NCBI GenBank assembly: GCA_945901065.1
Contig: CAMDKI010000004.1
Span: 103,247-167,246, forward strand
DNA length: 64,000 nucleotides
From: Chitinophaga pinensis
Lineage (GTDB): Bacteria > Bacteroidota > Bacteroidia > Chitinophagales > CAIOSU01
Direction of reading: 5' to 3'
Shown: positions 23,748 through 45,797 of the stretch, one piece after another
Position numbering within the stretch: position 1 is the first letter of the stretch
Layout of the letters: each line of letters opens with the position of its first letter
Notes under the pieces: generated by a model
Told to the model about the DNA's origin: nothing
The model's input: the letters and a program-made list of their open reading frames with translations, nothing else
Database searches by the model: none
Translations under genes and position numbers: made by a program

Positions 23748-23771
23748 GGGTTTATTATTAGTTGATTTGTT

Positions 23772-23906: not shown

Positions 23907-23955
23907 GCGATGGATTTTTAATCCGTCGCAATTGAGCAGCGGATTTGCAATCCGC
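23907..23955. repeat. pair of GGATT-N-AATCC hairpins
   Basis: GCGATGGATTTTTAATCCGTCGC (23907..23929) and GCGGATTTGCAATCCGC (23939..23955), separated by AATTGAGCA. The layout matches the pairs at 30441-30489, 42205-42252 and 45738-45783. Confidence 0.8.
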
Positions 23956-24051
23956 ACGCAATAAGGTTGCACAACATTTTTTTTTCAAAACTTCCCACTC
24001 CACTTTATGGAATAACCCCACCTACCGCATCTCATAGAAAAACACAGAACT

Positions 24052-25632
24052 ATGAGACGTTTCCTAACCCTTTTTGCCCTCTTGCTTTTTATTGCTTCCG
24101 CAACCTTTGCTAAAAGCGCAACTACCAAAGTTGATGCCGTAACCGTTTATCGCCAAAATGCCCGCATTATGCAAAGCGGCTATGTGGATATACCCGTGGG
24201 CACTACCGAAATTGTGATTGACAACCTGAGCGCGGCTATAATTTTGCCTAGTGTGCAGGTAGAACTGAGCGGCGGCGCAACTATCTTGTCCGTTACCAGC
24301 CGCGTTAATTACACCAAACCCATACTCGACCCTAAGCCGTTGCTTAAAATGAACGATACCATTGCTTCGTTTAACGAAAAATTGGAGTGGATTGAAAACC
24401 AACGGCAAGTATATACTGCCGAGGAGGGACTGATAAACGAAAAACAGAAAATGGTGGGCACCATTACGGGGCTTACGGTGGAGGAGTTGCAGAAACTATC
24501 GGACTTATACCGCAACCGTTTAATGGAGATAAGGGAAAAACTGTTCGACCTGAGAAAACAAACCAAAGACCTGACCGATAAGCGCGCCGAAGTGCAGACC
24601 CGCATAAATGAATACAGCAACCCAAGCTTTAAACCAACGGGCGAGATAGTGCTAATGGTTACGGCCAAAGTAGCTACCCGCAGCAAAGTGAGCTGCAACT
24701 ACTTGGTAAACCAAGCCGGCTGGACACCCATTTATGACCTACGCTCCAGTGGCTTTGAGAAGCCACTAACCTTAAACACTTACGGACAAGTGTACCAAAG
24801 TACTGGCTTGGATTGGAAGGACGTAAAACTAACCGTAAGCACCGGCAACCCGAGCCAAAATAATAGCCGCCCTATACTTGTACCGCTATATGTAGACTTC
24901 TACTCACCAATGGTGCATAATTATGTAAATGATGCTTCGGTGGTGAATAGTGCGCTTTATAGAAATAAGGAGAGTTTAAGCATCGACGACGAAGTGAAAT
25001 ACACCGTAACGGAAGTAGAAACCCAGCTGACGGTTGAGTACGACATCGACCTTGACCAAACCATACCGAGCGATGGTAAAACCTACCAAGTGCCGCTTAA
25101 GGAATACGAGATACCTGCCACCTATGTGCACCACACCGTGCCAAGCATGGATAAAGGGGCCTTCTTGCTGGCTAAAGTGCCAAACTGGGGCCAGTACAAT
25201 ATTATCTCGGGCGTAATGAACTTGTTTTTTGATGGGCGTTACATTGGTCAATCGAACATTAACACACAAGTTACCGCCGATACGTTGCTGCTATCGTTGG
25301 GCAGGGACGAGAGAGTAACCGTGCAGCGCAACCCAATAGTGGACAAAGAATCGCATAGTTTCTTGGGTGGCACGCGCAAAGAAAAACGCACCTACGAGAT
25401 AAGTGTGCGCAACAACAAGAGCAAAGCCATAACGCTCGAAATTTTGGACCACATACCAGTATCGAAACAACAAGACATTAAAGTGCTGTTGCTCGATCAA
25501 GGTGGCGCCGAATACACAGAAGCGATAGGGAAGCTGTTATGGACCATCCAATTGAATCCGGGTGAAACTAAAAAAGTGAGCTTTAGTTTTGAGGTAAGTT
25601 TCCCGAAAGACAAACCGGTGTCTGGCTTTTAA
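24052..25632 (+). CDS. DUF4139/DUF4140-type (MuiA-like) exported protein
   Basis: 526 aa with a signal peptide. The N-terminal V-x-VYR-x-x-A-x-I…V-x-I-x-NL…PSVQV pattern is followed by a central coiled coil (KLSDLYRNRLMEIREKLFDLRKQTKDLTDKRAEVQ) and a long beta-rich C-terminal half. This is the usual layout of that family. Confidence 0.65.
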   Translation: MRRFLTLFALLLFIASATFAKSATTKVDAVTVYRQNARIMQSGYVDIPVGTTEIVIDNLSAAIILPSVQVELSGGATILSVTSRVNYTKPILDPKPLLKMNDTIASFNEKLEWIENQRQVYTAEEGLINEKQKMVGTITGLTVEELQKLSDLYRNRLMEIREKLFDLRKQTKDLTDKRAEVQTRINEYSNPSFKPTGEIVLMVTAKVATRSKVSCNYLVNQAGWTPIYDLRSSGFEKPLTLNTYGQVYQSTGLDWKDVKLTVSTGNPSQNNSRPILVPLYVDFYSPMVHNYVNDASVVNSALYRNKESLSIDDEVKYTVTEVETQLTVEYDIDLDQTIPSDGKTYQVPLKEYEIPATYVHHTVPSMDKGAFLLAKVPNWGQYNIISGVMNLFFDGRYIGQSNINTQVTADTLLLSLGRDERVTVQRNPIVDKESHSFLGGTRKEKRTYEISVRNNKSKAITLEILDHIPVSKQQDIKVLLLDQGGAEYTEAIGKLLWTIQLNPGETKKVSFSFEVSFPKDKPVSGF

Positions 25633-25658
25633 CCATCGTAAAACCGATTGTTAACGTT

Positions 25659-25688
25659 AAGGGCGGGCAGCGATGCTCGCCCTTTTTT
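25659..25688 (+). terminator. intrinsic terminator
   Basis: AAGGGCGGGCAGCGATGCTCGCCCTTTTTT: a GC stem (GGGCG.GC / GC.CGCCC) followed by a T6 run, 27 nt after the stop at 25632. Confidence 0.65.
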
Positions 25689-25861
25689 ATGTTGGTATGC
25701 GGCTGGGTCACATATTGTGCGCATTGAAAAAAAATACAAAATGCAATCGCTACATTATCAGACTGGTATAATCTAAATGGAAAGTTTAGGGATAGAATTT
25801 GCTAAAATAATTTGCAATATTTTAAATCGGTTTTTAACTTGTGTATACAAAAACTACCGAT

Positions 25862-26446
25862 ATGGATTTTATCCCACAACCAACCTTTTTAGCTGCCCTT
25901 AAAGAAGTTTTGAAAACCGATGTAGCGGCCATTGCCCTTAATGTTGAGGACTTGTTTTACCTAGCCAACGACCTTTGCCCCCAAGCCCAACGCATACGCT
26001 ATGGCGCTTACCTAAGGTTTATTGATTCGTTAGATAAATACGGCGAACCAACGGTGCCACACGAGCAAGCTGATTTGTTGCTGGCTATACGCGATAGCAT
26101 TAAAGCCGAACAGGGTAAGCAGCGCATGGTTATGCTCAAAAGCATTATGCTCGGAGAGAAAGATTGGAGGCGTTTTGTGTGGCTGTTGCAATGGCAAGAA
26201 AAGCAGGAGCGCCAAAAAAACGCGGAAGCCAAGCAACAGGCCAAAGAGCAAAGGGAACGCGATGCGGCTGCTGAAACAGTAGCCAAGTTAGCCACCCCAG
26301 CGGAAGCAGAATCAGCTAAAGCTGCTTCAGCCGACATTGTACTGCCGCAAGCTATCACAAACCAGCAAACTAATGAGGTTGAGCAGCAGCAGTCAATCAG
26401 CGCTATGTACTACGCTACTAAGCAACCACTTGCCAAAGCAGGATGA
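25862..26446 (+). CDS. hypothetical protein with charged, low-complexity C-terminal half
   Basis: Track ORF 25841 (GTG)..26446; the first ATG is at 25862. It contains GEKDWRRFVWLLQWQEK followed by a QQAKEQRERDAAAE-rich tail. No family assigned. Confidence 0.5.
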   Translation: MDFIPQPTFLAALKEVLKTDVAAIALNVEDLFYLANDLCPQAQRIRYGAYLRFIDSLDKYGEPTVPHEQADLLLAIRDSIKAEQGKQRMVMLKSIMLGEKDWRRFVWLLQWQEKQERQKNAEAKQQAKEQRERDAAAETVAKLATPAEAESAKAASADIVLPQAITNQQTNEVEQQQSISAMYYATKQPLAKAG

Positions 26447-26506
26447 TGTGCCTATTTGATAATGTGCTGATGTGCTGATGTACCGATTTACCGATGAACT
26501 GATGTG
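26443..26506. repeat. eight in-phase degenerate octamers (CTGATGTG type)
   Basis: ATGATGTG CCTATTTG ATAATGTG CTGATGTG CTGATGTA CCGATTTA CCGATGAA CTGATGTG. The array begins on the TGA stop codon (26444..26446). Confidence 0.8.
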
Positions 26507-26717
26507 AGGCATTAGCGAAGGTCACTATTATCTTTTGGTAACTTTTTTCTAACGGTGCAGAGCTGGTAAGTTTTAATACACGGAAGAGGAAATTCAGGGT
26601 AAGGGTGAAATGCTAGTGTATAACTTCTGCTTATTGGTGCGTTAAGGCTGAAGCATATCCATCAAGAATAACGGGCATTAAACTAAAAAATATTACCTTT
26701 AGTAAATAAATGCTTAT

Positions 26718-27563
26718 ATGCTTACCAAACTATACGCTAGCTGCCTTGGTGCTTTGGTTTTATTGCTATTATTAGGTGCTACCACGTTTAAAATGTCTGT
26801 TAACGACCGCGAGAAAGATAACCTTCGCGGACCAGTGAAGACTGTTACGGAAAAAGAATACCGGCCTGTATTAGTAAACGGAAAAATTGAAAAAGGCAAC
26901 CTGTTATTCACTAATATTTCTAGTTATACTGTCGACGGCCGCTTGATTAAGAAGAGTTTTCAATCGCAGGATGGCGAGCTAATTCAATTGGATACCTTTA
27001 TTTACAATAACCAAAAACAGCTTATTAGGTCTGACCATACCAGCTCTCTTAAGCAACATAAGTGGATAACTTATAGATACGTTGAGGATAGCCTGTTGGT
27101 TCGTAGTACCCATGAATACGCCAATGGCAGAAAAATGGACAAAATTCAACTTTTCAATGCAGAAGGCTATCTAGTAGCATTTTATGAAGTGCATCCTTGG
27201 AAACCCGATGCCAAATCAAATAAGGAATATTACCGGTACGATAGCCATGGCCGAAAAACGGAAACCCATATCGATTATTTCGATAAAGGCACCATCAAGA
27301 TATTCTATGAATATGATGCCAATGGAAATTTAACGGATGAACGTGAATTTTTTAGTGATAGCGGTCCTGGGCGTTTCAGGAAAAGTGAGTATAATGAACA
27401 CAACCATGTAGTAAAACATGTAGTAACACAGGACGGTAATATTTTAACCACCGAAATTACCTCTTACGGCACATATGATGCCAAGGGTAACTACTTGCAA
27501 TACAGCATGTTTGTTGACGGCATGCCCTATACCATTCGGGACCGAGTAATTAGTTATTATTAG
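26718..27563 (+). CDS. hypothetical exported protein with YD/RHS-like short repeats
   Basis: 281 aa with an N-terminal hydrophobic signal. It has an LRGPVKTVTEKEY motif and repeated Y-x-YD-x-x-G-x-x pattern (YYRYDSHGRKTE, FYEYDANGNLTDE). Confidence 0.55.
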   Translation: MLTKLYASCLGALVLLLLLGATTFKMSVNDREKDNLRGPVKTVTEKEYRPVLVNGKIEKGNLLFTNISSYTVDGRLIKKSFQSQDGELIQLDTFIYNNQKQLIRSDHTSSLKQHKWITYRYVEDSLLVRSTHEYANGRKMDKIQLFNAEGYLVAFYEVHPWKPDAKSNKEYYRYDSHGRKTETHIDYFDKGTIKIFYEYDANGNLTDEREFFSDSGPGRFRKSEYNEHNHVVKHVVTQDGNILTTEITSYGTYDAKGNYLQYSMFVDGMPYTIRDRVISYY

Positions 27564-27691
27564 ATAGATGCAGCCGTTTTCCCAGTTTTTAAGGTAGGTA
27601 AGGTTTGGCAATAATAGCTATTTTAAACTAGCACGAAAGTCACTATTGTGTGCTGGTAACTTTCGGGGTGGTCAGTATAGGTTACCCCGTA

Positions 27692-28900
27692 TCAGTGGCT
27701 AACCAACATGTTTTCTATCACCTCATAGGCTGATTCGCAAGCGCCATGCACGGTTGCTTGGTTATCAATGGAAAGGGCTTCTCCTGCAAAAAACACCTTA
27801 TTTAGCAATGGTTTCTTTACCTCTGCTACAATATCGTACTGGCTTCCATCAAATGAGTACGAATATGCCCCTTGAATGTAAGGCTCTGCCGACCAATTTT
27901 GAATAACGTGCTTTACGTAATTTTTAGATGCCTTACCCTCAAATATTTCATCTAGCTCGGCTATAAACTTGTTAATAATCTCGGCCTTGGTTTTCAATTG
28001 GGCATATGGGGTGGCTTTATCGTTAATGGCAAAAAGTGCCAGAATATGTTTAGTAGCGTCTTTGCCGAATGCTGCATCGTAAATAAATTTTTCATCGTCT
28101 CTCATCGCTTGTATGACAGTACCAAAACCCAACATATCAGGATAGAACCTTTCTTTAAATTCAACGAAAATCTTAATGCCATCGCCCATGTAAATGCGGT
28201 TTATAGCTTTGGTTTTGCTAGCCGGCAACATTGGCTGGAAATCAATCAGCTGGCTCTGAAGGATTTTTATGGGAGCGGTTACCAGCACCTTATCTGCTTG
28301 ATACGTTTCGTCATTTGCGGTTTTCAGCACCACCCGCTCACCACTATAATCAATCTCCACAATGGGCTTATTGTAAACAATCTTGCTTTGTACATGTGGC
28401 AAAATGTATTGCTCAAAGTAGCTGTGCCAAGTGATGTTTTTAAATTTCCACTCGCTATAAAAATGGCTTATGTAGTTGTGTGCATGCAGTTTGCCATTGT
28501 TCCATGACTTTACACTTTGCGGGTTGTAAACAACGATGTCTATGTTGGCCTTTTCATCCGGATTGTTGATGATGTCTGCCAAAATAGAAGGGTCGACATG
28601 TATCCATTCTGCCCCGGTATCAATGGGGAAGTCGGCAAAGCCATCAACCCTTTTTACCCTACCCCCAAATACAGGTGCCGCTTCAATAATCTCAAACTCC
28701 ACTCCATATCTTGATAATAGGTAGCCAGCCGCTAAGCCAGCCGCCCCAGCGCCCACAATAATTACTTTGCCCGAAAAATTGGTTTTAAACTTCGGGAAAA
28801 TAGAGTCATCCTTACCGCACGACTCTAGCAAAATCGCGGAAAGAAATGGAAAACCAATGCCCAACGCTAAGGCTTTTGAGATAAAATCCTTCCTAGTCAT
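27692..28900 (-). CDS. flavin-dependent amine oxidase family protein (NAD(P)/FAD-binding), probable Tat/Sec-exported
   Basis: VIIVGAGAAGLAAGYLLSRYGVEFEIIEAAPVFGGRV is the dinucleotide-binding GxGxxG + E…GGR motif. The C-terminal FFAGEA motif is typical of the amino_oxidase family. The N-terminus MTRKDFISKALALGIGFPFL resembles an export signal. Confidence 0.85.
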   Translation of the reverse strand: MTRKDFISKALALGIGFPFLSAILLESCGKDDSIFPKFKTNFSGKVIIVGAGAAGLAAGYLLSRYGVEFEIIEAAPVFGGRVKRVDGFADFPIDTGAEWIHVDPSILADIINNPDEKANIDIVVYNPQSVKSWNNGKLHAHNYISHFYSEWKFKNITWHSYFEQYILPHVQSKIVYNKPIVEIDYSGERVVLKTANDETYQADKVLVTAPIKILQSQLIDFQPMLPASKTKAINRIYMGDGIKIFVEFKERFYPDMLGFGTVIQAMRDDEKFIYDAAFGKDATKHILALFAINDKATPYAQLKTKAEIINKFIAELDEIFEGKASKNYVKHVIQNWSAEPYIQGAYSYSFDGSQYDIVAEVKKPLLNKVFFAGEALSIDNQATVHGACESAYEVIENMLVSH

Positions 28901-29477
28901 GCCTTTCGTTTTTGTATTTTAAGTGAATAAGAATACCTGTTGATAAACCGATGAAAGCCGTGTTGACGGCATCGAAACGCAGTTGCCTGCCGTAGTATGC
29001 CTTAAAATAGAAACCAAACGCTTTGCGCGGGGCCACGCCAAAGCCCAAACTAATGTTCGGTACGAAACTGTGCAACTGCTTGTAGCTGTATTCAATTTCG
29101 CCTGTACCCAGGTTTAGTATGCCATCTTCCTTCTTGAAAGTGAGCAAGTATCCAGTTCCTAACGCTGCCAAAAGGAAAAACCGCTTATCGCGTTTCTGCC
29201 ACTGGTATAATACTTCGGGGTTAAAGAGCACATTATGTGATACCCTTGGCTGGTGGTAATAGCCTACCTGCGGCAGCAACTGTAAGCTATGCGTTTTGAT
29301 TCGTTGATTGGCTGAGGTTTTTTCCCAAGTCTTTAAGGTAAAGGCATAACCCACCGTGCCACCAACGTTAGTAAAATATGGGCCGAAGTACCCTACCTGC
29401 AGCGTATTAGGTGCTTTTTGAGCAAAAAGGTTGCCACTAAGCAACAAGGTAATGATAAGCCCCAATAGTGTTTTCAT
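28893..29477 (-). CDS. hypothetical outer-membrane beta-barrel-like protein
   Basis: 194 aa with a signal peptide (LLGLIITLLLSGNLFAQ) and alternating aromatic/Gly-rich beta-strand pattern. Its stop overlaps the amine oxidase start by 8 nt, so they form an operon. Confidence 0.55.
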   Translation of the reverse strand: MKTLLGLIITLLLSGNLFAQKAPNTLQVGYFGPYFTNVGGTVGYAFTLKTWEKTSANQRIKTHSLQLLPQVGYYHQPRVSHNVLFNPEVLYQWQKRDKRFFLLAALGTGYLLTFKKEDGILNLGTGEIEYSYKQLHSFVPNISLGFGVAPRKAFGFYFKAYYGRQLRFDAVNTAFIGLSTGILIHLKYKNERHD

Positions 29478-29640
29478 CGGTTGTTTTTTGATGATGCTTT
29501 AGCCCATAACGTTATTAATCATTAATCAAGTATGGCTGCAGCTTCCGTACTTTGCACAAAATGGGTTGCTGATGTTTGATATAACGATGGGGTAAAGATA
29601 AACAGCCTAGATTATTGGCCATTTGATTTATGTCACAAAA

Positions 29641-30216
29641 TCATTTGGCCCGCAGGCGACTGAGCGTTTCGCGAGAAATACCTAAAAAGGAAGCGATATA
29701 GGTTAATGGCACGCGCTTGAAAACATTGGGTTCTTGCGCCAATAAGGCAGTGTACCGCTCCCGTGCCGACCGCAAGTGAGTATAGAACAGCTTATCTTCC
29801 AGATACAGGCAGTACTCGCCAATAACTTGGTTAATGAAATTGGAAATCTCGATATTCTCAGCCATGAGCGGCTTGATGCCGTTTACGTTGAACGATAACA
29901 GGGTGCTATCTTCCAGCAGTTCAATCGTTTCCCTCGATGGCAGGTTGTTGTAGTTTCGCAACGACCCTACCATTTCGTTTTCAAAAGCAAACCAACTGTT
30001 TATCTCTGTGCCGTTGTGTAGGTAATAGCTACGGGCCGCACCCTTGACCAATAGGTAGGCATATCCGCTGGTCTGGTTCGTTTTTATCAGTTCATGTTTT
30101 TTAGGATAGTGCAATACTTTCACATTAGGCGTTAGCAGCCCAATTGCCGTTTCAGTCAATTTGGGCCTATACCTTTCGAAGAAAGCATCCATAATGTCTG
30201 CACTATCCACTAACAT
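29641..30216 (-). CDS. Crp/Fnr family transcriptional regulator
   Basis: A cNMP-binding-like beta-roll (YLLVKGAARSYYL..GTEINSWFAFENEMV) and a C-terminal HTH (VPLTYIASFLGISRETLSRLR). Track ORF 29641..30345 trimmed to the ATG at 30216; the ATG at 30192 is an alternative. Confidence 0.8.
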   Translation of the reverse strand: MLVDSADIMDAFFERYRPKLTETAIGLLTPNVKVLHYPKKHELIKTNQTSGYAYLLVKGAARSYYLHNGTEINSWFAFENEMVGSLRNYNNLPSRETIELLEDSTLLSFNVNGIKPLMAENIEISNFINQVIGEYCLYLEDKLFYTHLRSARERYTALLAQEPNVFKRVPLTYIASFLGISRETLSRLRAK

Positions 30217-30359
30217 GATTTTAGGGTTGCTTATAATGTAATAGCTTCGCCTCTGTAAAGTTATTGCATTAATATGAAGTGGAGGACTTGAGATGATGTT
30301 GAGAAGCCTTTGCCTGTTTTGCAAGTCTATGCTTCGGCTGGGCATTGAACATGCCCCTT

Positions 30360-30489
30360 CGGATTTTCAATCCAAATGATGGAGCTACGGATTCGTAATT
30401 CGTTTAATTGCGGGCACATATTTCACTACTGGTGTTGCGGGCGGATTACAAATCCGCAGCTCGGTTGCGTCGGATTATAAATCCGACGC
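30360..30489. repeat. four GGATT-N-AATCC-type hairpins (two degenerate, two intact)
   Basis: CGGATTTTCAATCCA (30360..30374, degenerate), ACGGATTCGTAATTCGT (30387..30403, degenerate), GCGGATTACAAATCCGC (30441..30457) and GCGTCGGATTATAAATCCGACGC (30467..30489, 10-bp stem). Confidence 0.8.
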
Positions 30490-30521
30490 GGCAGGGTTTT
30501 GCAATATAAATGCAACCACCT

Positions 30522-31259
30522 CTAAAAACTCACCGACAACGAGCCACCCAACCCTTGGCTACGGAAGGGGTGTAAACGAAGTTGGGCCTTATCGCCTACA
30601 TTAAAATCGAGCAAACTGGTTATTCCTTTGGCGTTGCGCCTATTGGTTCGGGCGGCTATTATGGGTGCATCTATCATCGACCATAGCCAAGTACCATATA
30701 CCGAAATCATGCCTACCGTAAACTGCGCATTGGCACCACGGTTGTATCCGCCATAATCGTAGCATTGGTATATCCCGTTGGCATCGTAGTAGCAACTGGT
30801 TTCGTAATAGTCGTAGCCGCCGCGGTAGCTAGTGGCCGCGGTAATAATACCGCCCATCCACAAGGCGCTCATGGCAGCACCTTTGCCATATTGGCGGTTG
30901 TAGTACTGTCCTCCGCCGGGTACTATAAACGAGAATAACCAAGCTAAGCCTGGCGAACGGTAGGCGCTGCCTACCAATTGGCGGCGGCCATTATAGGAAG
31001 TGCCTGGCACTTGATTCATTTGCAGCGGGCTAACCACTTCGGTAGTGCCATTCTCAAACTGGATAATAAATACCTTGCCACGCTCAACGCGGTAAACAGG
31101 GCCTTCGAGGTTGTCGTGGCGCTTGTAAACCACCTCGGTGGTAGTTATTTCCTGCACCTTGGCTTTTACTTCGGTGCCGTCTTTTAAAACGATATTGTCT
31201 TGTGCGCTTGCAAACCAGCAAACGAAAACAAGTGCGAATGCGATAGCGAAGGTTTTCAT
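30522..31259 (-). CDS. hypothetical exported/membrane protein
   Basis: Trimmed to the ATG at 31259 (MKTFAIAFALVFVCWFASAQ). It has an N-terminal beta-rich domain (IVLKDGTEVKAKVQEITTTEVVYKR), then a hydrophobic segment with an FIVPGGGQYYN motif and a Tyr/Gly-rich tail. Confidence 0.55.
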   Translation of the reverse strand: MKTFAIAFALVFVCWFASAQDNIVLKDGTEVKAKVQEITTTEVVYKRHDNLEGPVYRVERGKVFIIQFENGTTEVVSPLQMNQVPGTSYNGRRQLVGSAYRSPGLAWLFSFIVPGGGQYYNRQYGKGAAMSALWMGGIITAATSYRGGYDYYETSCYYDANGIYQCYDYGGYNRGANAQFTVGMISVYGTWLWSMIDAPIIAARTNRRNAKGITSLLDFNVGDKAQLRLHPFRSQGLGGSLSVSF

Positions 31260-31378
31260 AATAGCGGAGGTTGAGTGTGCCATTTAACGATAAAAAGGCG
31301 TAATTATTGTTGATTTACGAACTAATTGATTAGGTCAATTCTATAATTCTATAAATTCTGATTCGGAAGGTAGCCCAC

Positions 31379-32383: not shown

Positions 32384-32401
32384 GTGGCAAAGATACTAAT
32401 A

Positions 32402-32739
32402 GCTTGCCTCGTTTCAAACGAGGGACCACAGTCCACCGTCCATGGTCGACAGAAAAAAGAATGCAAGTTGGATAGAGATTAAAAATTCAAAATTTAAAAT
32501 TCAAAATTAGGAATGAGCGTAGGTTATACCGCCGTTCAAAAACTTTTAACTTACTTTGTTTCTGTCAGTGACTAGTGAATAGTAACTAGCGACTAGATAT
32601 AAAAAAGACTCATTAAACATTTAAGCGCAGTGCTGATTTTTTTCGCTTCGAAATACACCTCCCTAACCCTCCTTCCTAGGAGGGAAGTGTTGTTGGGTAT
32701 TTTAAAGTCTTGATACTTGATACTCAATACTCAATACTG
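32402..32739. repeat. cluster of four different heptamer arrays plus two hairpin elements in one divergent intergenic region
   Basis: GCTTGCCTCGTTTCAAACGAGG hairpin (32402..32423). Four arrays: 32424..32451 (GACCACA GTCCACC GTCCATG GTCGACA), 32483..32510 (AAATTCA AAATTTA AAATTCA AAATTAG), 32566..32600 (CAGTGAC TAGTGAA TAGTAAC TAGCGAC TAGATAT) and 32709..32739 (CTTGATA CTTGATA CTCAATA CTCAATA CTG). Palindrome CCCTCCTTCCTAGGAGGGAAG around 32668..32690. Confidence 0.85.
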
Positions 32740-32744
32740 AAAAA

Positions 32745-34157: not shown

Positions 34158-34180
34158 TGCATCATAATGTTTAACAGTAC

Positions 34181-34302
34181 GCCCCAAGGGGGCACAACAA
34201 TACTAGCGTCGGGCACCGCCCGACGTACGCATTGGGTTTCCGGAAATGCAATTTGTATATAGGGCGATGCCCTATTCTATTAGTATCTGACCCCTTTGGG
34301 GT
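34181..34302. repeat. series of five short GC-rich palindromes/hairpins between convergent genes
   Basis: GCCCCAAGGGGGC (34181..34193), CGTCGGGCACCGCCCGACG (34207..34225), TTTCCGGAAA (34237..34246), ATAGGGCGATGCCCTAT (34259..34275) and ACCCCTTTGGGGT (34290..34302). Confidence 0.75.
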
Positions 34303-34333
34303 GAAGAACGTATTGAGGAATAAAGCCAACCAA

Positions 34334-34789: not shown

Positions 34790-34887
34790 GTTGCAAAGGT
34801 AAGGGGTTTATCAGCATTTTCCTGACCCATCGATTCAATTGTTGGGACGTTTACCTATTGTCATTTGAATGTTTAATAGCTATATTC

Positions 34888-35478: not shown

Positions 35479-35516
35479 AATAGGAAATGAAAAATAAGAA
35501 ACAATAAATAAGAAAC
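35475..35516. repeat. six in-phase degenerate heptamers (AAGAAAC type) starting on the stop codon
   Basis: ATGAAAT AGGAAAT GAAAAAT AAGAAAC AATAAAT AAGAAAC. The TGA stop of the LOG gene is at 35476..35478. Confidence 0.75.
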
Positions 35517-35690
35517 ACTTAGTATATAGTGCTTCCCTCCTAAAAAGGAGGGGCAGGGGTGGTGTAATTCGTCGAGTTGAACATGAGATTGCCAATAGTA
35601 ACATTGCGAGTGAATAGCATCAACTCGCAATTGTAGTACGCCAATCATAAACCAGCTTTAATTAGACAATTTCCTACCTGTAGCAAGCAA

Positions 35691-35762
35691 CACCTCCTCA
35701 TCCCTTCCTTCGACCTCGTTTAAAACGAGGCTCAGGACAGGCTCTTTTTAGGAGGGAAAATG
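35691..35762. repeat. partial copy of the 43070..43220 element (47-nt shared core with CTCGTTT-N-AAACGAG hairpin)
   Basis: 35702..35748 (CCCTTCCTTCGACCTCGTTTAAAACGAGGCTCAGGACAGGCTCTTTT) versus 43081..43127 (CCCTTCCTTCGATCTCGTTTGAAACGAGACTCAGGACAGGCTCTTTT). There are 3 differences: one in the loop and two forming a compensatory T-A to C-G stem pair. Confidence 0.85.
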
Positions 35763-35785
35763 TTATGTCCAAATTGCAATAAGAT

Positions 35786-36979: not shown

Positions 36980-37114
36980 ACCGCTGTTTTTTTGTTCGAA
37001 ATTAGGGATTGCGGCGCATAAAACACTTATTATTTTTGAAGTTGTGATATTCTCGCCATTGGGTGTTAATTTTATCCAGTTGCAATTGCCGAATTTTTGA
37101 AAATACAACCCCTA

Positions 37115-38383: not shown

Positions 38384-38488
38384 TTTGTGCGGTTAGCTAC
38401 CGGTTTTTATAAAGTGCGCAATATGTAAAGTTACTTTTACGTTCTAGTTAAATAGCGTAGCTTTAGATTACCAACTATCAATACTGTT

Positions 38489-38929
38489 ATGAAAATTCCT
38501 GCCCCGATTTTCATACTACTTAGCGTTTTTTTGCTGAGCATGTGTGCATGCAACAAGTACGATGAAGGCCCTGCCTTTTCATTGCGAACCAAGACTTTTA
38601 GAGCTACCGATAATTGGATTGTGACCGATGCCCAGCGAAATGGATTGGATGTAACCTCCAGCGTGCGAATGAACGTGAACTTGCGCGCTGATGGCACCAT
38701 GGTATATACCGATACTATTGCAGTTGCCGCAGGCGACTCAATATCAAACCGCCAAGGGGTTTGGGAGTTTGACCGCGATGCTGAGAACCTCTTGATTGTG
38801 TTTACCGACCCAGGTGGCGGCAATGTATCAGCCAGAATTTGGTATATTTTGCGCTTATCGGTGGGTCAACTGTGGGTTACAGAAAGTGTTGGCGAAAACT
38901 TGTATCGCTACGAATTTGAACCTAAATAA
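38489..38929 (+). CDS. hypothetical lipoprotein
   Basis: 146 aa. The signal peptide has Cys residues at the lipobox position (FLLSMCACNKYD). No family recognised. Confidence 0.55.
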   Translation: MKIPAPIFILLSVFLLSMCACNKYDEGPAFSLRTKTFRATDNWIVTDAQRNGLDVTSSVRMNVNLRADGTMVYTDTIAVAAGDSISNRQGVWEFDRDAENLLIVFTDPGGGNVSARIWYILRLSVGQLWVTESVGENLYRYEFEPK

Positions 38930-39732
38930 TGCTTACACCATTAAAGTCTTTCTTGCTACTAGCGTTTATTGCCTCGAGTTTGCAATGTATGCCGGTATTC
39001 GGTCAAATTGTTACCGACGATATTGCGGTTCCGCCACCAAGTAATATACCTGCCAAAAAGAATCGCAACAACGACAGACCTACCAAGCAATTGTTTTTGC
39101 TGCTCAATGCCGGTTTAGCTTCTCCGCTAGGTATTTTCGGTTCTACCAATATTCTAGAGGAAGATGCTGTTTTTGCCAAAACAGGCATAAACCTCAGCCT
39201 TAATGTTGGCCGAACCTTTAACCGTTATGTGGGGCTTACTGCTACAGGCGGGCTTATAGTGCAAACCAATAAAATGGCCCAGATTGTAGACAACTACAAT
39301 CGCTATGGCCCACCTGGCTCATATATATTGGCATACGACTACCCAGGTATGCGGTTTTATTATTTGGCAGGCGGCTTGTTGGTTACAGTGCCGGCTACTA
39401 ATCGGTTTTCTATTGATGTAAAGCTGCAAGGTGGCATGGCGCTGGGTGTAGATAGGGAGCTAACGCTGCAGATTGATAACGGACTTGGCACCATAATAGA
39501 AAAGTATGGCAAAGCCAGCGACATCGCTTTTCTGCCCGATTTGGGCTTAAACTTTAGGTTGTTGGTTACCGACAACTTTACTATGAATTTCTTTACCGAT
39601 TTTGTAATGGCCAACTTCAAATTTAAGGACGTAACCTACTACGAAAACGGCGTACCACTGGCTACCTACGACTACGACCTGCCCATGCGCAACCTCAATG
39701 TAGGCATAGGAGCGGGGTGGAGTTTTAAGTAG
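38929..39732 (+). CDS. hypothetical outer-membrane beta-barrel-like protein
   Basis: 267 aa. The start ATG overlaps the upstream TAA (TAATG). It has a signal peptide (LLLAFIASSLQCMPVFGQ), alternating beta-strand pattern and a C-terminal aromatic residue (…GAGWSFK). Confidence 0.55.
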   Translation: MLTPLKSFLLLAFIASSLQCMPVFGQIVTDDIAVPPPSNIPAKKNRNNDRPTKQLFLLLNAGLASPLGIFGSTNILEEDAVFAKTGINLSLNVGRTFNRYVGLTATGGLIVQTNKMAQIVDNYNRYGPPGSYILAYDYPGMRFYYLAGGLLVTVPATNRFSIDVKLQGGMALGVDRELTLQIDNGLGTIIEKYGKASDIAFLPDLGLNFRLLVTDNFTMNFFTDFVMANFKFKDVTYYENGVPLATYDYDLPMRNLNVGIGAGWSFK

Positions 39733-39772
39733 TCCACAGTCCACAGTCCACAGTCCACAGTCCACAGTCGAT
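39731..39772. repeat. AGTCCAC heptamer x5 (+1 degenerate) starting on the stop codon
   Basis: AGTCCAC AGTCCAC AGTCCAC AGTCCAC AGTCCAC AGTCGAT. The TAG stop of the upstream gene is at 39730..39732. Confidence 0.9.
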
Positions 39773-39812
39773 GGCGAGTAGCTTATAGCATATGGTTCGT
39801 TGTACCCCAAAA

Positions 39813-39900
39813 ACCCTCGCCCAAGGCGAGGCAAGCTAATACCCCTCGCCCAAGGCGAGGCAAGCTAATAACCCTCGCCCAAGGCGAGGCAAGCTAATAA
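39813..39900 (+). repeat. three tandem 28-30-nt units ACCCTCGCCCAAGGCGAGGCAAGCTAATA, each a 7-bp stem hairpin
   Basis: Units at 39813..39840, 39841..39870 and 39871..39900. Each has the stem CCTCGCC/GGCGAGG with a CAA loop. There are no unique spacers between units. Confidence 0.9.
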
Positions 39901-39925
39901 CCAATCAACCAATCAACCAATCAAC
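39901..39925. repeat. CCAATCAA octamer x3
   Basis: CCAATCAA CCAATCAA CCAATCAA C, directly following the third 30-nt unit. Confidence 0.85.
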
Positions 39926-39972
39926 TGCCACCTTTACAGCCCGGAACTGCAATTTTGGCGCATTATGCCAGT

Positions 39973-39988
39973 TGGCACAACTAATGCT
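39973..39988 (+). promoter_or_regulatory. sigma-54-like -24/-12 motif upstream of groES (speculative)
   Basis: TGGCAC AACTA ATGCT. GG and GC have the canonical 12-nt register of TGGCAC-N5-TTGC, and the -12 element ends 42 nt before the groES ATG. A TACCTTTA (near TAnnTTTG) box also lies at about 39999..40006. Confidence 0.25.
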
Positions 39989-40029
39989 ATAGGCAAAGTA
40001 CCTTTAAAACGATAAAAACATAAAACAAT

Positions 40030-40305
40030 ATGGCTGTTAACATTAAACCCCTTGCAGACCGCGTGCTGGTGAAAGCCGACGCCGCCGAAGAAACCACCAA
40101 GAGTGGCCTATTTATACCCGATACGGCTAAAGAAAAGCCAATGCGTGGCGTAATAGTAGCCGTAGGTGCGGGCAAAAAAGACGAACCAATGACCGTGAAA
40201 GTGGGCGACAAAGTATTGTATGGCAAATATGCTGGCACTGAGTTGACCGTAGAAGGAGAGGAGTTCTTGATTATGCGCGAAAGCGACATCTTCGCCATCC
40301 TTTAA
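40030..40305 (+). CDS. groES: co-chaperone GroES
   Basis: 91 aa: [48 protein letters not shown]…, the canonical Cpn10. Confidence 0.97.
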
Positions 40306-40308
40306 TTT

Positions 40309-40343
40309 GGTTACGGGTTCCGAGTTACGGGTTGCGAGTTTGC
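40309..40343. repeat. five in-phase degenerate heptamers (GGTTACG type)
   Basis: GGTTACG GGTTCCG AGTTACG GGTTGCG AGTTTGC, starting 4 nt after the groES TAA (40303..40305). Confidence 0.8.
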
Positions 40344-40362
40344 AATAAACCAACGACCAGTA

Positions 40363-40390
40363 ACCCTCGCCCAAGGCGAGGCAAGCTAAT

Positions 40391-40392
<2 letters not shown>
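40363..40392 (+). repeat. fourth copy of the ACCCTCGCCCAAGGCGAGGCAAGCTAATAA unit (groES-groEL spacer)
   Basis: Identical to the 39871..39900 unit by eye. Confidence 0.9.
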
Positions 40393-42097
<1,705 letters not shown>

Positions 42098-42135
42098 GCT
42101 ACATCGTCCGGCTTTAAAGCCTGATAATCATTTTA

Positions 42136-42177
42136 ACGCCCCCATTTCTTTTAGTAGAGATGGGGGCGTTTTTTTTG
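42136..42177 (+). terminator. intrinsic terminator of groESL
   Basis: Stem ACGCCCCCAT (42136..42145) / ATGGGGGCGT (42160..42169), followed by a T8 run. Confidence 0.85.
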
Positions 42178-42194
42178 GGTTTGGGACCCCTGCC

Positions 42195-42285
42195 CACCCT
42201 GCCCATTCGGATTTGTAATCCGAATGTACTGAGCACCGGATTTGCAATCCGGCACATACTATGTAAACGAACCTCACACGCACAC
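42195..42285 (+). repeat. ~90-nt double GGATT-hairpin element
   Basis: GCCCATTCGGATTTGTAATCCGAATGTACTGAGCACCGGATTTGCAATCCGGCACATACTATGTAAACGAACCTC. It is collinear with a degenerate copy at 45641..45725 (GCCCATTCGGGTTTATAATTTGAGTGTAAGAGCACCTGATTTGTAATTCGGCACTTACTTCGTAAATCAACCTC). Confidence 0.85.
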
Positions 42286-42392
42286 TCCCGTTGCTTGTTG
42301 TAACTAACATTTGGCAAGGGTAGCGGCATATTCATTGGCAACAATTGATTAATTTTAGGTGTTATTCTTCGTAAAGTTTTCAATTGCTGGGT

Positions 42393-42914
42393 ATGTTTAA
42401 ATCTTTTTTGCCGCTGCTGTTTGTGGGTATCATGTTAACGGCTTTCGTGGCTCCTGTGCCAGTTACCGATAGTGTTATCGAGATTCTTCAAGGTTCTAAA
42501 AAGGTGTTTAACTTTTCTGCAGGGCTAAAGTCTGCCGAATTGGTAACAATGTTGGAGGGTAAAGGTCCGTATACTATTTTTGCGCCGCTCAATACCGCTT
42601 TTGCCAAGTTACCCGCGGGTAGCCTTGAGAACTTGTTTAAACCCGAAAACAAAACTACGCTCACCAGCCTGCTCAACTACCATATAGTGCCCTTGCAACT
42701 CACCAAAGCCGACTTGGTTGCAGGGATAAACCAAGGCAATGGAAAAATGATACTCAAAACCATGTTGGGCAAAACCTTAACGGCTACCTTGGCCGATGGC
42801 AAATTGCAATTGACCGATGCACAGGGCACTATAGCCTACATTACCTATGCCGACAAATTGGGCACCAACGGTGTGGTGCACTTTATTGATGGCGTGCTTA
42901 TGCCGGCCAAATAA
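42393..42914 (+). CDS. fasciclin domain-containing protein
   Basis: Trimmed to the ATG at 42393. After the signal peptide come YTIFAPLNTAFAKLP, LLNYHIVP and NGVVHFIDGVLMP, the FAS1 H1/YH/H2 motifs. Confidence 0.85.
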   Translation: MFKSFLPLLFVGIMLTAFVAPVPVTDSVIEILQGSKKVFNFSAGLKSAELVTMLEGKGPYTIFAPLNTAFAKLPAGSLENLFKPENKTTLTSLLNYHIVPLQLTKADLVAGINQGNGKMILKTMLGKTLTATLADGKLQLTDAQGTIAYITYADKLGTNGVVHFIDGVLMPAK

Positions 42915-42932
42915 ACATATATCTGCTTGATC

Positions 42933-42994
42933 CACGCAATCGGATTTCTAAATCCGCCCTTTCAAATTCCCAAATCCAAATACTAGATTGCGTG
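42933..42994. repeat. 9-bp inverted repeat (CACGCAATC/GATTGCGTG) enclosing a CGGATTTCTAAATCCG hairpin
   Basis: Arms at 42933..42941 and 42986..42994, with the internal hairpin at 42941..42956. Confidence 0.7.
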
Positions 42995-43069
42995 ATGTAG
43001 CATCTGGCAAATACCAGGTAAACGAACTACTTGTTAATGCTTGTAAAGAGTGTCCCCTGCCCGCACTAA

Positions 43070-43220
43070 CCACCCCCAACCCCTTCCTTCGATCTCGTTT
43101 GAAACGAGACTCAGGACAGGCTCTTTTGCATCCGCTCAAAAAGGCCATTCGAAGCCTGCCTGCGGCAGGCAGGCTTCGCCGAGCCAGTGCAGCGCTGGCA
43201 AAAGGAGGGGTTGGGGGTGG
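43070..43220. mobile_element. 151-bp MITE-like non-coding element with perfect 15-bp terminal inverted repeats
   Basis: CCACCCCCAACCCCT (43070..43084) and AGGGGTTGGGGGTGG (43206..43220) are exact reverse complements. Inside are the hairpin TCTCGTTTGAAACGAGA (43093..43109) and the 27-nt palindrome GAAGCCTGCCTGCGGCAGGCAGGCTTC (43151..43177). There is no coding capacity, and the track ORFs across it read both strands of the palindrome. Confidence 0.6.
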
Positions 43221-43233
43221 TTGCACATAATTC

Positions 43234-43270
43234 AAAAAAAAACACCCCGCTTCAATAAAGAAACGGGGTG
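43234..43270 (-). terminator. intrinsic terminator of the M43 protease gene
   Basis: The minus strand reads CACCCCG-TTTCTTTATTGAAG-CGGGGTG followed by T9 (the plus-strand A-run at 43234..43242). It lies 29 nt after the stop at 43299. Confidence 0.75.
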
Positions 43271-43298
43271 CTCGGGTATGGTTTAATGGAGGCGGGTG

Positions 43299-45260
43299 TT
43301 ATTTCGCAATCATTACTTTCTGCACTTGTTTTACTTGGTTGTTGTTTTTGATGGCTACAAAATAGAAGCCATTTTCTAAGGCGCTAAGGTCGATGCCAGT
43401 GTTAAACTCGGCTTCAACGCTACCTAGCGCTTGCGCAAATACTACACGGCCAGCAATGTCATAAACCTGTACGTTGGCATTTTCCATGCTTTCGGTAGTA
43501 AAGATGCTGATGTTCAATTTGCCATTGCTTGGGTTAGGTGCCAAGGTTAGGTCGAAAACCGAAGGCTTGTCATTAGCCAAATCCAAATCGGCAGCATCAG
43601 TTGCGTCATCGGCACCAACCCTAAAGTTGGTAGCGCTAATGCTTGCAGTTAGTGTATAGCAATTGCTAGCATTAAATGCACCACCACTGCCCAATACGCG
43701 GATAGTATAGGTACCAACAGAGTTGGTGTTATAAGTAATCGTCTCGTTGGTAGTACCAGTGTTTTGAGAAATGGCAACTTGGTTACCTCTAGAGTTGTAC
43801 AACACTACATTGTAGTTGGCTGGCAAATTAGTCAAAGTTATTCTTATGCGGCGTTGGGTACTGGTGTTCGCAAACTTAAAGTAGTCATTATCGGTGCTAG
43901 TGCCAATTACTGCGGTGATGGCAGTGTTTACAGGGATGGTTTTAGCAGTCGAAATTGAATTGTTAGACTCATAAGCATCGGTGCAAGTAGCAGTAACTGC
44001 TAGGGTAGTAAAGCTGCCAGTGGTAGTATAGTTGCTACTGCCGCTGCTGCAAACGGTTTGCACTTGGTAGTTGTAAGTAGTATTATTTGCCAAGCCCGAT
44101 AGGGTAAAGCTAGTAGCACTGGTGCTTACAGTTGTGAAAGTGGCAGCCGCACTAGTTTTGTATTGTACATTGTAGCTAGTTGCACCGCTAGCTGCGCTCC
44201 AAGTAAGTGTTGCACCTGTGGTAGTAACATTGCCAGCACTTAGGCCAGTTGGGCTATTGCAAGCGGCGATATTTCCAGGTACACAACCCAATGAGTTAAG
44301 CAATGAAGCCCTAAAGCCACCTGTTGCAAACAATGCTTGCATGCGCGCTTTTTGACCTTCAGTAAACATAAACATACAGGCGTCATCGGTATAGTCCATG
44401 TAGTTCATGAACAAATCTCCGTTGGGGCCATTGCTGCACGATACCGTTGGGAACGAAGGGCAGCCATAATTTTCGTCGCCTTGGTTTGGCGTGTCGGTTA
44501 CGTTATCGCTACCAGTACAACCGGTGCCATCGTCGCCCCAAATGTGGTAAAGGTTTAGCCAGTGACCTACTTCGTGAGTTGCGGTGCGACCTTTGTTGAA
44601 AGGCGCTGCAGCAGTACCGATGGTACCAAAGGCGTTGTAGTTTACTACTACACCATCGGTAGCGGCGCTGCCACCAGGAAACTGCGCATAGCCCAAAATG
44701 CCACCGCTAATGTTACAAACCCAAAGGTTTAAGTACGAGCTGCTGGGCCAAGCATTAGAACCACCGTTGGCGCTTCTTTTAACATTATCGTTAGTAGAAA
44801 ATGAGGTGTTGGTTGTTAATTTGCGAACAATACCGTTAGAAGCATTGCCATTAGGGTCGCGCTGTGCGAGGCAAAACTGCACATCAACATTGGCTACTAA
44901 ACTTTGAAAAACTGAAGGAGTATTGGTCCAGTCGGCATTTAGCTTGGCAAAATCGGCATTCAAAACATTCATCTGCGACTGTATTTGGGCATCGCTGATG
45001 TTCTCGGTTGTGGTACGATATACTACATGCACTACTACTGGTATAGTTACCAACGCCCTACCGGTATTGCCTTGAGGGTTATTGGTAATCCAGTTCTGGG
45101 TAAATTGTTCAATGTTTTGGCGATTTTGCAACACGCTTGGGTCTTGCAATATCATGTTTTGCAAGTGCTCCATAGCACCACAATTGCGTTGGGCATTGGC
45201 TGGGGCAGCACTTACAAGCAATAGCAGTACTAGGCTGATTTTCAGTAATTGTTTTAACAT
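43299..45260 (-). CDS. secreted zinc metalloprotease (M43 pappalysin/cytophagalysin-like) with FN3, PPC-type and T9SS type A C-terminal domains
   Basis: After the signal peptide comes the metzincin motif HEVGHWLNLYH (HExxHxxxxxH) followed by DTPNQ. Then an FN3-like region (LSAGNVTTTGATLTWSAASGATSYNVQYK), a pre-peptidase C-terminal-like region (DAYESNNSISTAKTI…DNDYFKF…YTIRV) and the tail LAPNPSNGKLNISIF…GFYFVAIKN…QKVMIAK. Confidence 0.85.
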   Translation of the reverse strand: MLKQLLKISLVLLLLVSAAPANAQRNCGAMEHLQNMILQDPSVLQNRQNIEQFTQNWITNNPQGNTGRALVTIPVVVHVVYRTTTENISDAQIQSQMNVLNADFAKLNADWTNTPSVFQSLVANVDVQFCLAQRDPNGNASNGIVRKLTTNTSFSTNDNVKRSANGGSNAWPSSSYLNLWVCNISGGILGYAQFPGGSAATDGVVVNYNAFGTIGTAAAPFNKGRTATHEVGHWLNLYHIWGDDGTGCTGSDNVTDTPNQGDENYGCPSFPTVSCSNGPNGDLFMNYMDYTDDACMFMFTEGQKARMQALFATGGFRASLLNSLGCVPGNIAACNSPTGLSAGNVTTTGATLTWSAASGATSYNVQYKTSAAATFTTVSTSATSFTLSGLANNTTYNYQVQTVCSSGSSNYTTTGSFTTLAVTATCTDAYESNNSISTAKTIPVNTAITAVIGTSTDNDYFKFANTSTQRRIRITLTNLPANYNVVLYNSRGNQVAISQNTGTTNETITYNTNSVGTYTIRVLGSGGAFNASNCYTLTASISATNFRVGADDATDAADLDLANDKPSVFDLTLAPNPSNGKLNISIFTTESMENANVQVYDIAGRVVFAQALGSVEAEFNTGIDLSALENGFYFVAIKNNNQVKQVQKVMIAK

Positions 45261-45640
45261 TGTCGGATTTTAAATTGGGTATTGGGTTATCATTAAATTA
45301 AGCGTTCGAAAGTCAAATCAAACCAATTGGTCGATTAAAAGCAAATTCAACTTGGTTATTTCATTGCGTATTTTCAAATAGTTATTACAATTAGGCAATA
45401 AATTTTATATCCGTCTGAGCATCAGTGAGGTAGCGCTATATTTTGGAGTATTTTCTGACCAGTTTTTCCTTGCAACATTTACGAAGTAATGGTGTCCAAA
45501 AATGCAATTTGAAATTAAAGCGATCGCAAACAACATCATCATTATCCTGATTGATAACAATTGAACCCGCGCGATGGTTTTTGAAATGGGCTATACTTGT
45601 AAATTTGCATTGAAGTGAGAAGTACTCAATGCTACCTACC

Positions 45641-45783
45641 CCGCCCATTCGGGTTTATAATTTGAGTGTAAGAGCACCTGATTTGTAATTCGGCACTTAC
45701 TTCGTAAATCAACCTCCTATGCATGCCTTTGCTAATCAGCGGATTGCAAATCCGCTTCTCGGTAACGACGGATTGCAAATCCG
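45641..45783. repeat. degenerate double-hairpin element plus two intact GGATTGCAAATCC hairpins
   Basis: 45641..45725 is the degenerate homolog of 42195..42285. AGCGGATTGCAAATCCGCT lies at 45738..45756 and CGGATTGCAAATCCG at 45769..45783. Confidence 0.8.
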
Positions 45784-45797
45784 CCGTGGCGAAAATT

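Follow-up and report, generated by a model that had tools for sequence, protein, structure and literature searches.

Paired GGATT-N3-AATCC hairpins in a Chitinophaga pinensis contig: very probable REP-type elements of the family that accompanies subclass 2.6 RAYTs in Bacteroidota

Several bacterial lineages carry short hairpins that are linked to a tyrosine transposase of the HUH-Y1 type, and three such systems frame the family of paired hairpins with a shared GGATT-N3-AATCC core that we describe here from 64,000 nucleotides of Chitinophaga pinensis DNA (GenBank assembly GCA_945901065.1, contig CAMDKI010000004.1, positions 103,247 to 167,246 of the forward strand), hereafter called the window. 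The repetitive extragenic palindromic (REP) sequences of Escherichia coli, with their bacterial interspersed mosaic elements (BIMEs) and TnpA_REP, the REP-associated tyrosine transposase (RAYT) of Group 2 or subclass 2.2, are short imperfect palindromes found in many extragenic copies, with a conserved 5' foot, composite arrays, a single-copy HUH-Y1 gene flanked by them and a folded single strand as the acting form, and as Quentin et al. (2018, BMC Genomics 19:475, PMC6006769) describe them they are like our hairpins in these respects, the flanked gene being seen for ours in other genomes. Unlike ours, the E. coli elements have a GTAG foot, longer and bulged stems, and REPs that alternate within a BIME; the elements described here have a GYT or GCC foot, a 10-bp stem with a triloop, and hairpins in direct orientation. 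The REPINs of Pseudomonas fluorescens, which belong to RAYT Group 3, are comparable in being non-autonomous, inverted, thought to derive from the flanks of RAYT genes, able to replicate within the genome, and prone to decay as singlets. A third comparison is with the subterminal hairpins of IS200/IS605 insertion sequences (IS608, ISDra2), present at both gene ends, where a Y1 HUH transposase reads one strand of single-stranded DNA, as its relatives may do here by analogy. In our judgement the window hairpins are very probably REP-type elements of the family accompanying the subclass 2.6, or 'Group 5', RAYTs of Bacteroidota.

Subclass 2.6 of TnpA_REP, which corresponds to Bertels' RAYT Group 5, is found mostly in Bacteroidetes, and the passages of PMC6006769 considered here describe its genes as flanked by 'atypical secondary structures' without GT[AG]G that were found by manual inspection. 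Among the REPs that Table S1 of that paper gives for this subclass are CAGCGGATTTATAATCCGCTG and CAATCGGATTTGCAATCCGATTG in Bacteroides xylanisolvens, CTTTGCGGGCACGGATTGCAAATCCGCGCAATCG, containing CACGGATTGCAAATCCGCG, in Flavobacterium johnsoniae, and CGTTGGGATTACAAATCCCAACG in Runella slithyformis. Our hairpins share with these entries from three Bacteroidetes an identical core and loop, GGATT-(TGC/TAT/ACA/GCA)-AATCC, a covarying outer stem, the lack of GT[AG]G and, in genomes other than that of the window, an associated enzyme of ~180 aa with the motif NH[LIV]H ... YIH[QN]NP. They differ from the table entries in that the paper, in the same passages, records single hairpins beside three genes; what goes beyond those passages is the pairing in direct doublets, a G-Y-T foot, a stem fixed at 10 bp, inverted doublets on either side of the gene, and the wide spread within Bacteroidota. 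An earlier, sequence-only reading of the window had not recognised the hairpins as a described family, which was partly right: they stand in Table S1, and full-text searches for 13- to 15-mers returned only unrelated matches and no main-text discussion of them. The 16-mers flanking Group 5 RAYTs number about 31 per replicon, a figure equal to that for 16-mers beside insertion sequences and below those for Groups 2 and 3 (Bertels et al. 2017). The kind of element is thus already known, and its doublet architecture and conserved foot-stem-loop module exceed what the searched literature records.

The exact pattern GGATTNNNAATCC (GGATT-N3-AATCC) occurs 9 times in the window, as compared with 0.04 occurrences expected from dinucleotide shuffles (none of 100 reaches 9), and allowing one mismatch gives 11 matches where 1.55 are expected. 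Every copy is intergenic, both on the map of open reading frames (ORFs) and by the gene calls on the identical public contig, a metagenome assembly of 722 kb (ENA ERZ27280281, k141_568765). Por_Secre_tail and CHU_C domains, together with weak similarity to proteins of Saprospiraceae and Phaeodactylibacter MAGs, place this contig in an uncultured member of the Bacteroidota. The hairpins listed in the sequence-only reading were all recovered where it had placed them, and its shared core and its complementary variable flanks, extending stems to as much as 10 bp, proved real; its six intergenic loci are indeed intergenic, their number being five regions that hold six oriented two-hairpin doublets and one lone hairpin (Table 1). 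Read 5' to 3' on its own strand, a doublet consists of a GCC foot, a 10-bp stem closed by a T-R-Y triloop, a spacer with GAGC, and a second hairpin. The stem of hairpin 1 is built of five variable yet complementary pairs followed by GGATT/AATCC, and hairpin 2, of 7-8 bp, repeats the core and the loop polarity of hairpin 1. From the start of one hairpin to the start of the other the distance in window doublets is always exactly 29 nt. Pairing across a TGAGCA-type spacer had been noticed before; what had escaped notice is that 30441-30492 and 45738-45790 are in reverse-complement orientation, their '...TCGG...' being the complement of '...CCGA/TGAGC...'. Four doublets (c1, c2a, c3, c5a) accordingly lie on the plus strand and two (c2b, c5b) on the minus strand; GC skew is positive across the window, and doublets split 4 to 2 are too few for any reading of orientation against replication. 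A profile hidden Markov model (HMM) made from the six window copies found no further copy in the 64 kb.

The four intact doublets (c1, c2b, c3, c5b) fold as two hairpins, with z-scores of -3.7 to -5.8 relative to shuffled sequence. The copies previously called degenerate, c2a (30353-30403) and c5a (45643-45693), have lost their stems and are no more stably folded than shuffled sequence (z about -0.2). Both of the intact window stems that are imperfect (c1, c5b) have their G.T on the foot-bearing strand. Doublet c3 stands directly downstream of the groEL terminator (42135-42170), and the lone hairpin c4 adjoins a decayed remnant, TGCCC(T/A)TTC-AAATT...AAATCC.

Table 1. Hairpin doublets, the lone hairpin and copies of a second repeat family in the window (E, nhmmer E-value; z, folding z-score)
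Feature	Position	Strand	Parts	Support
c1, doublet, intact	23904-23955	+	foot GCC 23904-06; hairpin 1 GCGAT-GGATT-TTT-AATCC-GTCGC 23907-23929, one T.G wobble; spacer AATTGAGCA; hairpin 2 GCGGATTTGCAATCCGC 23939-23955	E=8e-21; z -3.67
c2a, doublet + 3' tail, decayed; left half of locus-2 composite	30353-30440	+	foot GCC 30353-55; hairpin 1 core 30361-73, outer stem broken; hairpin 2 CGGATTCGTAATTCG 30388-30402	E=1.6e-20; z -0.16
c2b, doublet, intact; right half of locus-2 composite	30441-30492	-	hairpin 2 30441-30457; hairpin 1 GCGTC-GGATT-...-AATCC-GACGC 30467-30489; foot GCC (- strand) 30490-92	E=1.5e-20; z -5.51
c3, doublet + 3' tail, intact	42191-42287	+	foot GCC 42201-03; hairpin 1 CATTC-GGATT-TGT-AATCC-GAATG 42204-42226; spacer TACTGAGCA; hairpin 2 CCGGATTTGCAATCCGG 42236-42252; tail GCACATACTATGTAAACGAACCTC, collinear with c5a	E=1e-23; z -5.8
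c4, lone hairpin without partner	42941-42956	.	CGGATT-TCTA-AATCCG, 4-nt loop	z -2.97
c5a, doublet + 3' tail, decayed; left half of locus-5 composite	45630-45729	+	foot GCC 45643-45; hairpin 1 CATTC-GGGTT-TAT-AATTT-GAGTG; hairpin 2 CTGATTTGTAATTCG	E=1e-21; z -0.22
c5b, doublet, intact; right half of locus-5 composite	45738-45790	-	hairpin 2 45738-45754; hairpin 1 45765-45787, one G.T wobble; foot GCC (- strand) 45788-90	E=9e-19; z -4.04
CCCTCGCCCAAGGCGAGGCAAGCTAATAA family copy	39807-39902			
CCCTCGCCCAAGGCGAGGCAAGCTAATAA family copy	40357-40394			
CCCTCGCCCAAGGCGAGGCAAGCTAATAA family copy	23757-23800		inverted	
CCCTCGCCCAAGGCGAGGCAAGCTAATAA family copy	7307-7329			

A scan for the hairpin pair with one genome per species returned at least 120 loci, and the counts that follow are from the 120 loci listed, with ~0.8 Mb of DNA around them. 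By record title these comprise ~98 Bacteroidota (Prevotella, Tannerella, Pontibacter, Pedobacter, Mucilaginibacter, Chitinophagaceae, Flavobacteriales and others), 7 Chloroflexi, 14 Planctomycetes and 1 unrelated archaeal repeat. The search pattern fixed the ten core bases, and only the flanks count as evidence. Extension of the stem beyond the core peaks at exactly 5 extra pairs, which were found in 109 of 434 hairpins, against 2.2 when 3' flanks were swapped between hairpins; at the sixth position past the core pairing is down to 18%, and all four types of Watson-Crick pair are present at each of the five outer-stem positions. Covariation was scored on a gap-free alignment of 48 distinct doublets, in which all seven free pairs vary on both sides, 132 cells are compensatory as compared with 44.8 +/- 4.4 in shuffles (0 of 500 reach 132), and 95% of cells are paired as compared with 25-52% when the partner column is slid.

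This pattern bears on the possibility that the hairpins are double-stranded palindromic operators for a dimeric regulator, or intrinsic terminators, as an intergenic core that is a perfect palindrome could suggest. Five outer pairs that covary without sequence conservation, in a stem that ends sharply after pair 10, indicate a folded single strand rather than a duplex site, and the operator reading is also at odds with the strand-asymmetric mismatch bias and the one-stranded 5' foot described below. As to terminators, no hairpin is followed by a T-run, and a terminator scan that called those of groEL and of a peptidase gene (43273-43240), both separate from the GGATT hairpins, called none of the latter. 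We consider operators or terminators extremely unlikely.

With stem length or the loop taken as the guide to orientation, both loops of a doublet read TGC or TGT, and a G-Y-T foot stands directly 5' of the long stem (positions -8 to -6; G in 142, Y in 156 and T in 129 of 168). Where a long stem is perfect but for one mismatch, this is G.T or T.G in 29 instances and A.C or C.A in 5, a bias from which it follows that the hairpin is selected as a single strand, namely the foot-bearing one. Only 10% of 436 cores fall inside ORFs of at least 150 aa, though such ORFs cover 77% of the fetched DNA.

The oriented loop also speaks to a resemblance with tRNA. The sequence CGGATTGCAAATCCG equals the anticodon arm of E. 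coli tRNA-Cys, and with a loop readable as UU-NNN-AA this likeness raises the idea of tRNA-derived or anticodon-arm-mimicking elements; two unrelated papers have the 13-mer in a tRNA or RNA-transcript context. The loop on the foot strand is TGY, not GCA, the stem has 10 bp, not 5, no acceptor, D or T arms stand beside the hairpins, and ARAGORN reported no tRNA or tmRNA in the whole window. The resemblance is coincidental, and a tRNA origin has in our estimate a negligible probability.

Two further arrangements were seen among the fetched loci. In Planctomycetes (L002, L015, L030, L031, L040, L070, L079, L082, L086, L095, L109, L112) the core GGATT-N3-AATCC occurs in another layout, gtaggac-GGATT...AATCC-gtcc ... 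ggac-GGATT...AATCC-gtcctac, that is, as a REPIN-like inverted pair with canonical GTAG/CTAC feet; no RAYT was found near these pairs within their 8-kb blocks. A metagenome-assembled genome (MAG) of Cytophagales (L027, 6322-7049) has six 137-nt units head-to-tail with one doublet in each, and the doublet element can therefore also amplify in tandem.

The association with RAYT genes was observed in both directions. When the fetched loci were searched for the motif [NS]H[LI]H...Y[IL]HxNP, 8 of them proved to contain such an ORF, of 181-201 aa (stop to stop), and in 7 of the 8 it lies at most about 120 nt from the doublets; in three (L004, L006, L041) doublets flank the gene on both sides, inverted and with the long hairpin outermost. 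All 8 ORFs pass the Pfam Y1_Tnp cut-off, and the 6 tested against NCBIfam NF047646, 'REP-associated tyrosine transposase', all pass that cut-off and fail the IS200 model. This sets the gene apart from IS200/IS605 elements, which are autonomous and multi-copy and have a left end that differs from the right: the gene found here fits the RAYT equivalog, and the hairpins far outnumber it. The relatives of the neighbouring RAYTs in the PDB are IS200-type transposases. With 4 loci added by tblastn, a RAYT homologue is present in 12 of the 120 hairpin-selected loci, mostly directly flanked by doublets, where ~0.3 would be expected in the ~0.8 Mb, a rough figure that assumes ~1.8 such genes per ~5-Mb genome (our own assumption). 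The twelve include one Anaerolineae genome (L085). A profile of the neighbouring RAYT proteins matches more than 6,787 clusters, many of them named RayT by their sources, and for a reciprocal test we picked 4 RAYTs by protein score alone from the best 120 of these clusters. Exact GGATT-N3-AATCC doublets directly flank 3 of the 4 (Marinoscillum pacificum, marine bacterium AO1-C and Larkinella bovis), the Marinoscillum copy, GCTAATTCGGATTTGCAATCCGAATGgcTGAGC..., resembling window doublet c3 down to the TGAGC spacer, and the fourth keeps this architecture around GGATG-TATA-CATCC, a variant of the core.

In this fourth case (L132 2800-3000, a MAG, ENA ERZ25039504) a RAYT of the same clade stands beside GCTCTTTC-GGATG-TATA-CATCC-GAAAG, followed by GGATTTATCAATCC; foot and outer stem are kept and core and loop are altered, a possible case of co-divergence of REP and RAYT. 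A further type of hairpin core that can be set beside GGATT and GGATG is GCTAG-CGCGAGCG.

The sequence-only reading had left the choice between a REP/BIME-type element and a small structured RNA family, and had proposed a RAYT gene, covariation and intergenic association as checks. All three came out positive, the first in genomes other than that of the window, and they favour the REP half of that choice; the RNA half is disfavoured by the occurrence of both orientations, by turnover and by the absence of an Rfam match, as set out below.

Several observations nevertheless weigh against assigning the window hairpins to the RAYT-associated REPs. The canonical GT[AG]G foot is absent, and neither G-Y-T nor the GCC by which the window copies differ from most doublets of the subclass 2.6 type fits it; the lack of GT[AG]G is already on record for subclass 2.6 REPs in PMC6006769. 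The two hairpins within a doublet are direct (loops TGY/TGY), not inverted as in classical BIMEs and REPINs, and inverted geometry is confined to the next level up, where entire doublets face each other, at window loci 2 and 5 and on the two sides of RAYT genes. Cognate RAYTs were found in other genomes, and within the 64-kb window a regular-expression search, tblastn and a six-frame HMM search (best E=0.76) detected neither a RAYT gene nor a remnant of one; JGI metagenomes, scanned for the window's own subfamily with a 31-base pattern specific to it, gave 2 loci, both without a RAYT. Comparison with relatives recovered no clean pair of filled and empty sites, the sites there being occupied by the same copy or another repeat, or having diverged in sequence, and the literature searched contains no biochemistry on subclass 2.6 enzymes.

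Two of the window loci are composites. Locus 2 (30330-30520) and locus 5 (45620-45810) are collinear over their whole length, with 75% identity, each being laid out as a plus-strand doublet, a ~45-nt tail and a minus-strand doublet; the ~90-nt collinearity noticed earlier, between 42191-42287 and 45630-45729, is real as well. Copies c2a and c5a have in common a derived AATTCG mutation in hairpin 2, and the composite therefore predates its duplication. In geometry (plus doublet, short spacer, minus doublet) these loci correspond to a REPIN, and equally to a RAYT locus minus its gene. Unlike a REPIN, which consists of two single inverted REPs forming one long hairpin, they have doublets as arms, of which the plus arms are decayed at both loci, and half of the intact window copies (c1, c3) are lone doublets. 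Folding of loci 2 and 5 as one long hairpin is unsupported; each half folds on its own, and over its full length locus 5 gets no lower than z = -1.96.

Relatives that align to the window at nucleotide identities of 93-98% (L123), 93-96% (L133) and 85% (L136) show that doublet copies come and go with no matching change in the flanking genes. Doublet c1 is absent from L133, where an unrelated repeat occupies the site. L133 and L134 have the locus-2 composite, with c2a intact in both, and L136 lacks it; the window copy of c2a therefore decayed, through 2 point mutations. At the c3 site L123 has a different, single degenerate hairpin in opposite orientation, and c4 is removed there by a 22-nt indel. 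Locus 5 is kept in L123, with c5a conserved and c5b identical, the sole difference being the copy number of an adjacent heptamer repeat. This repeat, a GTCTTGT tandem at 45795-45815, adjoins c5b and has three more units in L123. Where junctions could be compared with those of relatives, we saw no target-site duplication. Such turnover is the behaviour of mobile, decaying DNA and not of a conserved regulatory RNA.

A structured RNA family, comprising small RNAs or cis-acting modules of 5' or 3' untranslated regions (for example stabilisers or protein-binding sites) selected at the RNA level, would share some of these properties. REPs of other bacteria have been exapted as mRNA stabilisers, and the doublets may have a secondary effect on transcripts. 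Strong covariation is what such a family would show, tolerance of G.T on one strand only (29 to 5) would be seen in RNA too, and some copies occupy transcribed-looking intergenic positions, as c3 does right after the groEL terminator. Set against this are doublets in both orientations between co-directional genes (c2a on plus and c2b on minus, and c5a and c5b likewise, between minus-strand genes), the gain, loss and decay of copies between relatives that are 85-98% identical, and the inversion of doublets around RAYT genes, an arrangement that makes sense at the DNA level. Rfam gave 0 matches at gathering score for the window in full; with the threshold relaxed to E<=1, the stretch 42100-46000 gave only two, centred on the groEL terminator region, one of them grazing the start of c3 and neither relevant. 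We regard RNA-level selection as distinctly unlikely.

The same insertion polymorphism could be produced by a miniature inverted-repeat transposable element (MITE) mobilised in trans by a non-Y1 transposase, that of a DDE-type insertion sequence, in which the hairpins would be incidental internal palindromes; loci 2 and 5, being composites of ~165 nt whose ends are inverted, and other MITE-like inserts in the window such as 43050-43225, are compatible with this. What is conserved, however, is the core, the loop and the 5' foot and not terminal inverted repeats, the junctions compared show no visible target-site duplication, and the gene that recurs as a neighbour encodes a Y1 RAYT and not a DDE transposase. 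A MITE of this kind is very unlikely, and we return to the REP-type element as the explanation of the doublets.

How a RAYT might act on the doublets can be proposed from E. coli TnpA_REP and IS200/IS605 TnpA. By analogy with these, as PMC6006769 summarises them, the RAYT would bind single-stranded DNA at the long hairpin of the foot-bearing strand, recognising the sequence of the foot, of GGATT/AATCC and of the TGY loop and the shape of the lower five pairs, and would cut nearby, with the result that the doublet is copied or excised. Inverted pairs of doublets, as at loci 2 and 5, may also be moved, the second, shorter hairpin may mark a boundary or offer another site for binding, and doublets no longer recognised would then decay. 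The G.T bias supports action that is specific to one strand; binding and cleavage we infer from the analogues.

Other repeats lie in the same window. A second family is built on the 29-nt unit CCCTCGCCCAAGGCGAGGCAAGCTAATAA, whose hairpin is CCTCGCC-CAAG-GCGAGG, and has both a tandem array (3.3 copies) and scattered members (Table 1); its copy at 23757-23800 is absent from relative L133, and the family may be another REP-like one. Arrays of the heptamer GTCCACA occur in both orientations (39732-39770; 8255-8292, inverted; 32426-32452; 46672-46698) and recall the CTGTGG...CACAG REPs listed for the subclass 2.6 RAYT of Cytophaga hutchinsonii in Table S1 of PMC6006769. An insertion of ~175 nt at 43050-43225, absent from L123, is bounded by inverted AACCACCCCCAACCCC / GGGGTTGGGGGTGGTT and has inside it the hairpin CTCGTTTGAAACGAG, which resembles the subclass 2.6 REP TCACTCGTTAAAAACGAGCGA given for Flexibacter litoralis in that table; this hairpin family is also present around 35689-35748, and in L133 at 14930-15080, where the window has c1. 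Inverted repeats of AGTATCAAGTA-type units at 7203-7235 / 7372-7404 have arms that are 97% complementary and 136 nt apart, and a third copy of this type lies 25 kb away (32704-32738). At 11613-13068 there are three tandem 492-nt repeats of 65-83% identity, apparently coding, and short motifs related to them occur at 49.0-51.3 kb within a 1934-aa ORF (47866-53670, a Por_Secre_tail protein).

A broader proposition, which we offer tentatively and hold to be rather doubtful, is that one RAYT clade has kept one recognition module (G-Y-T foot, five pairs read by shape only, GGATT/AATCC and TGY triloop) across Bacteroidota and at least one Anaerolineae genome, as opposed to the rapid co-divergence of REPs and RAYTs in Proteobacteria, and that what transposes is two direct hairpins as one doublet, or two doublets in inverted orientation, and not a single REP or a classical REPIN. 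If true, it would imply a different geometry of binding and cleavage, such as a protomer on each hairpin and a 3' boundary set by the short one, and it would make these elements a good system for learning how a domesticated Y1 transposase reads a hairpin, natural variation having already separated the positions read by sequence from those read by shape.

The doublets open no new category of element. They account for recurrent 'mystery' intergenic palindromes in Bacteroidota, which annotation should label or mask as REPs and not as small RNAs, operators or terminators, and they mark intergenic hot-spots that differ between near-identical strains, which can serve to type strains and which cause breaks in assemblies. 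For the subclass 2.6 enzymes, which have hardly been studied, they provide a compact recognition module, consisting of a foot, five free and five fixed pairs, a fixed loop and a strand asymmetry, that eases the design of binding and cleavage experiments.

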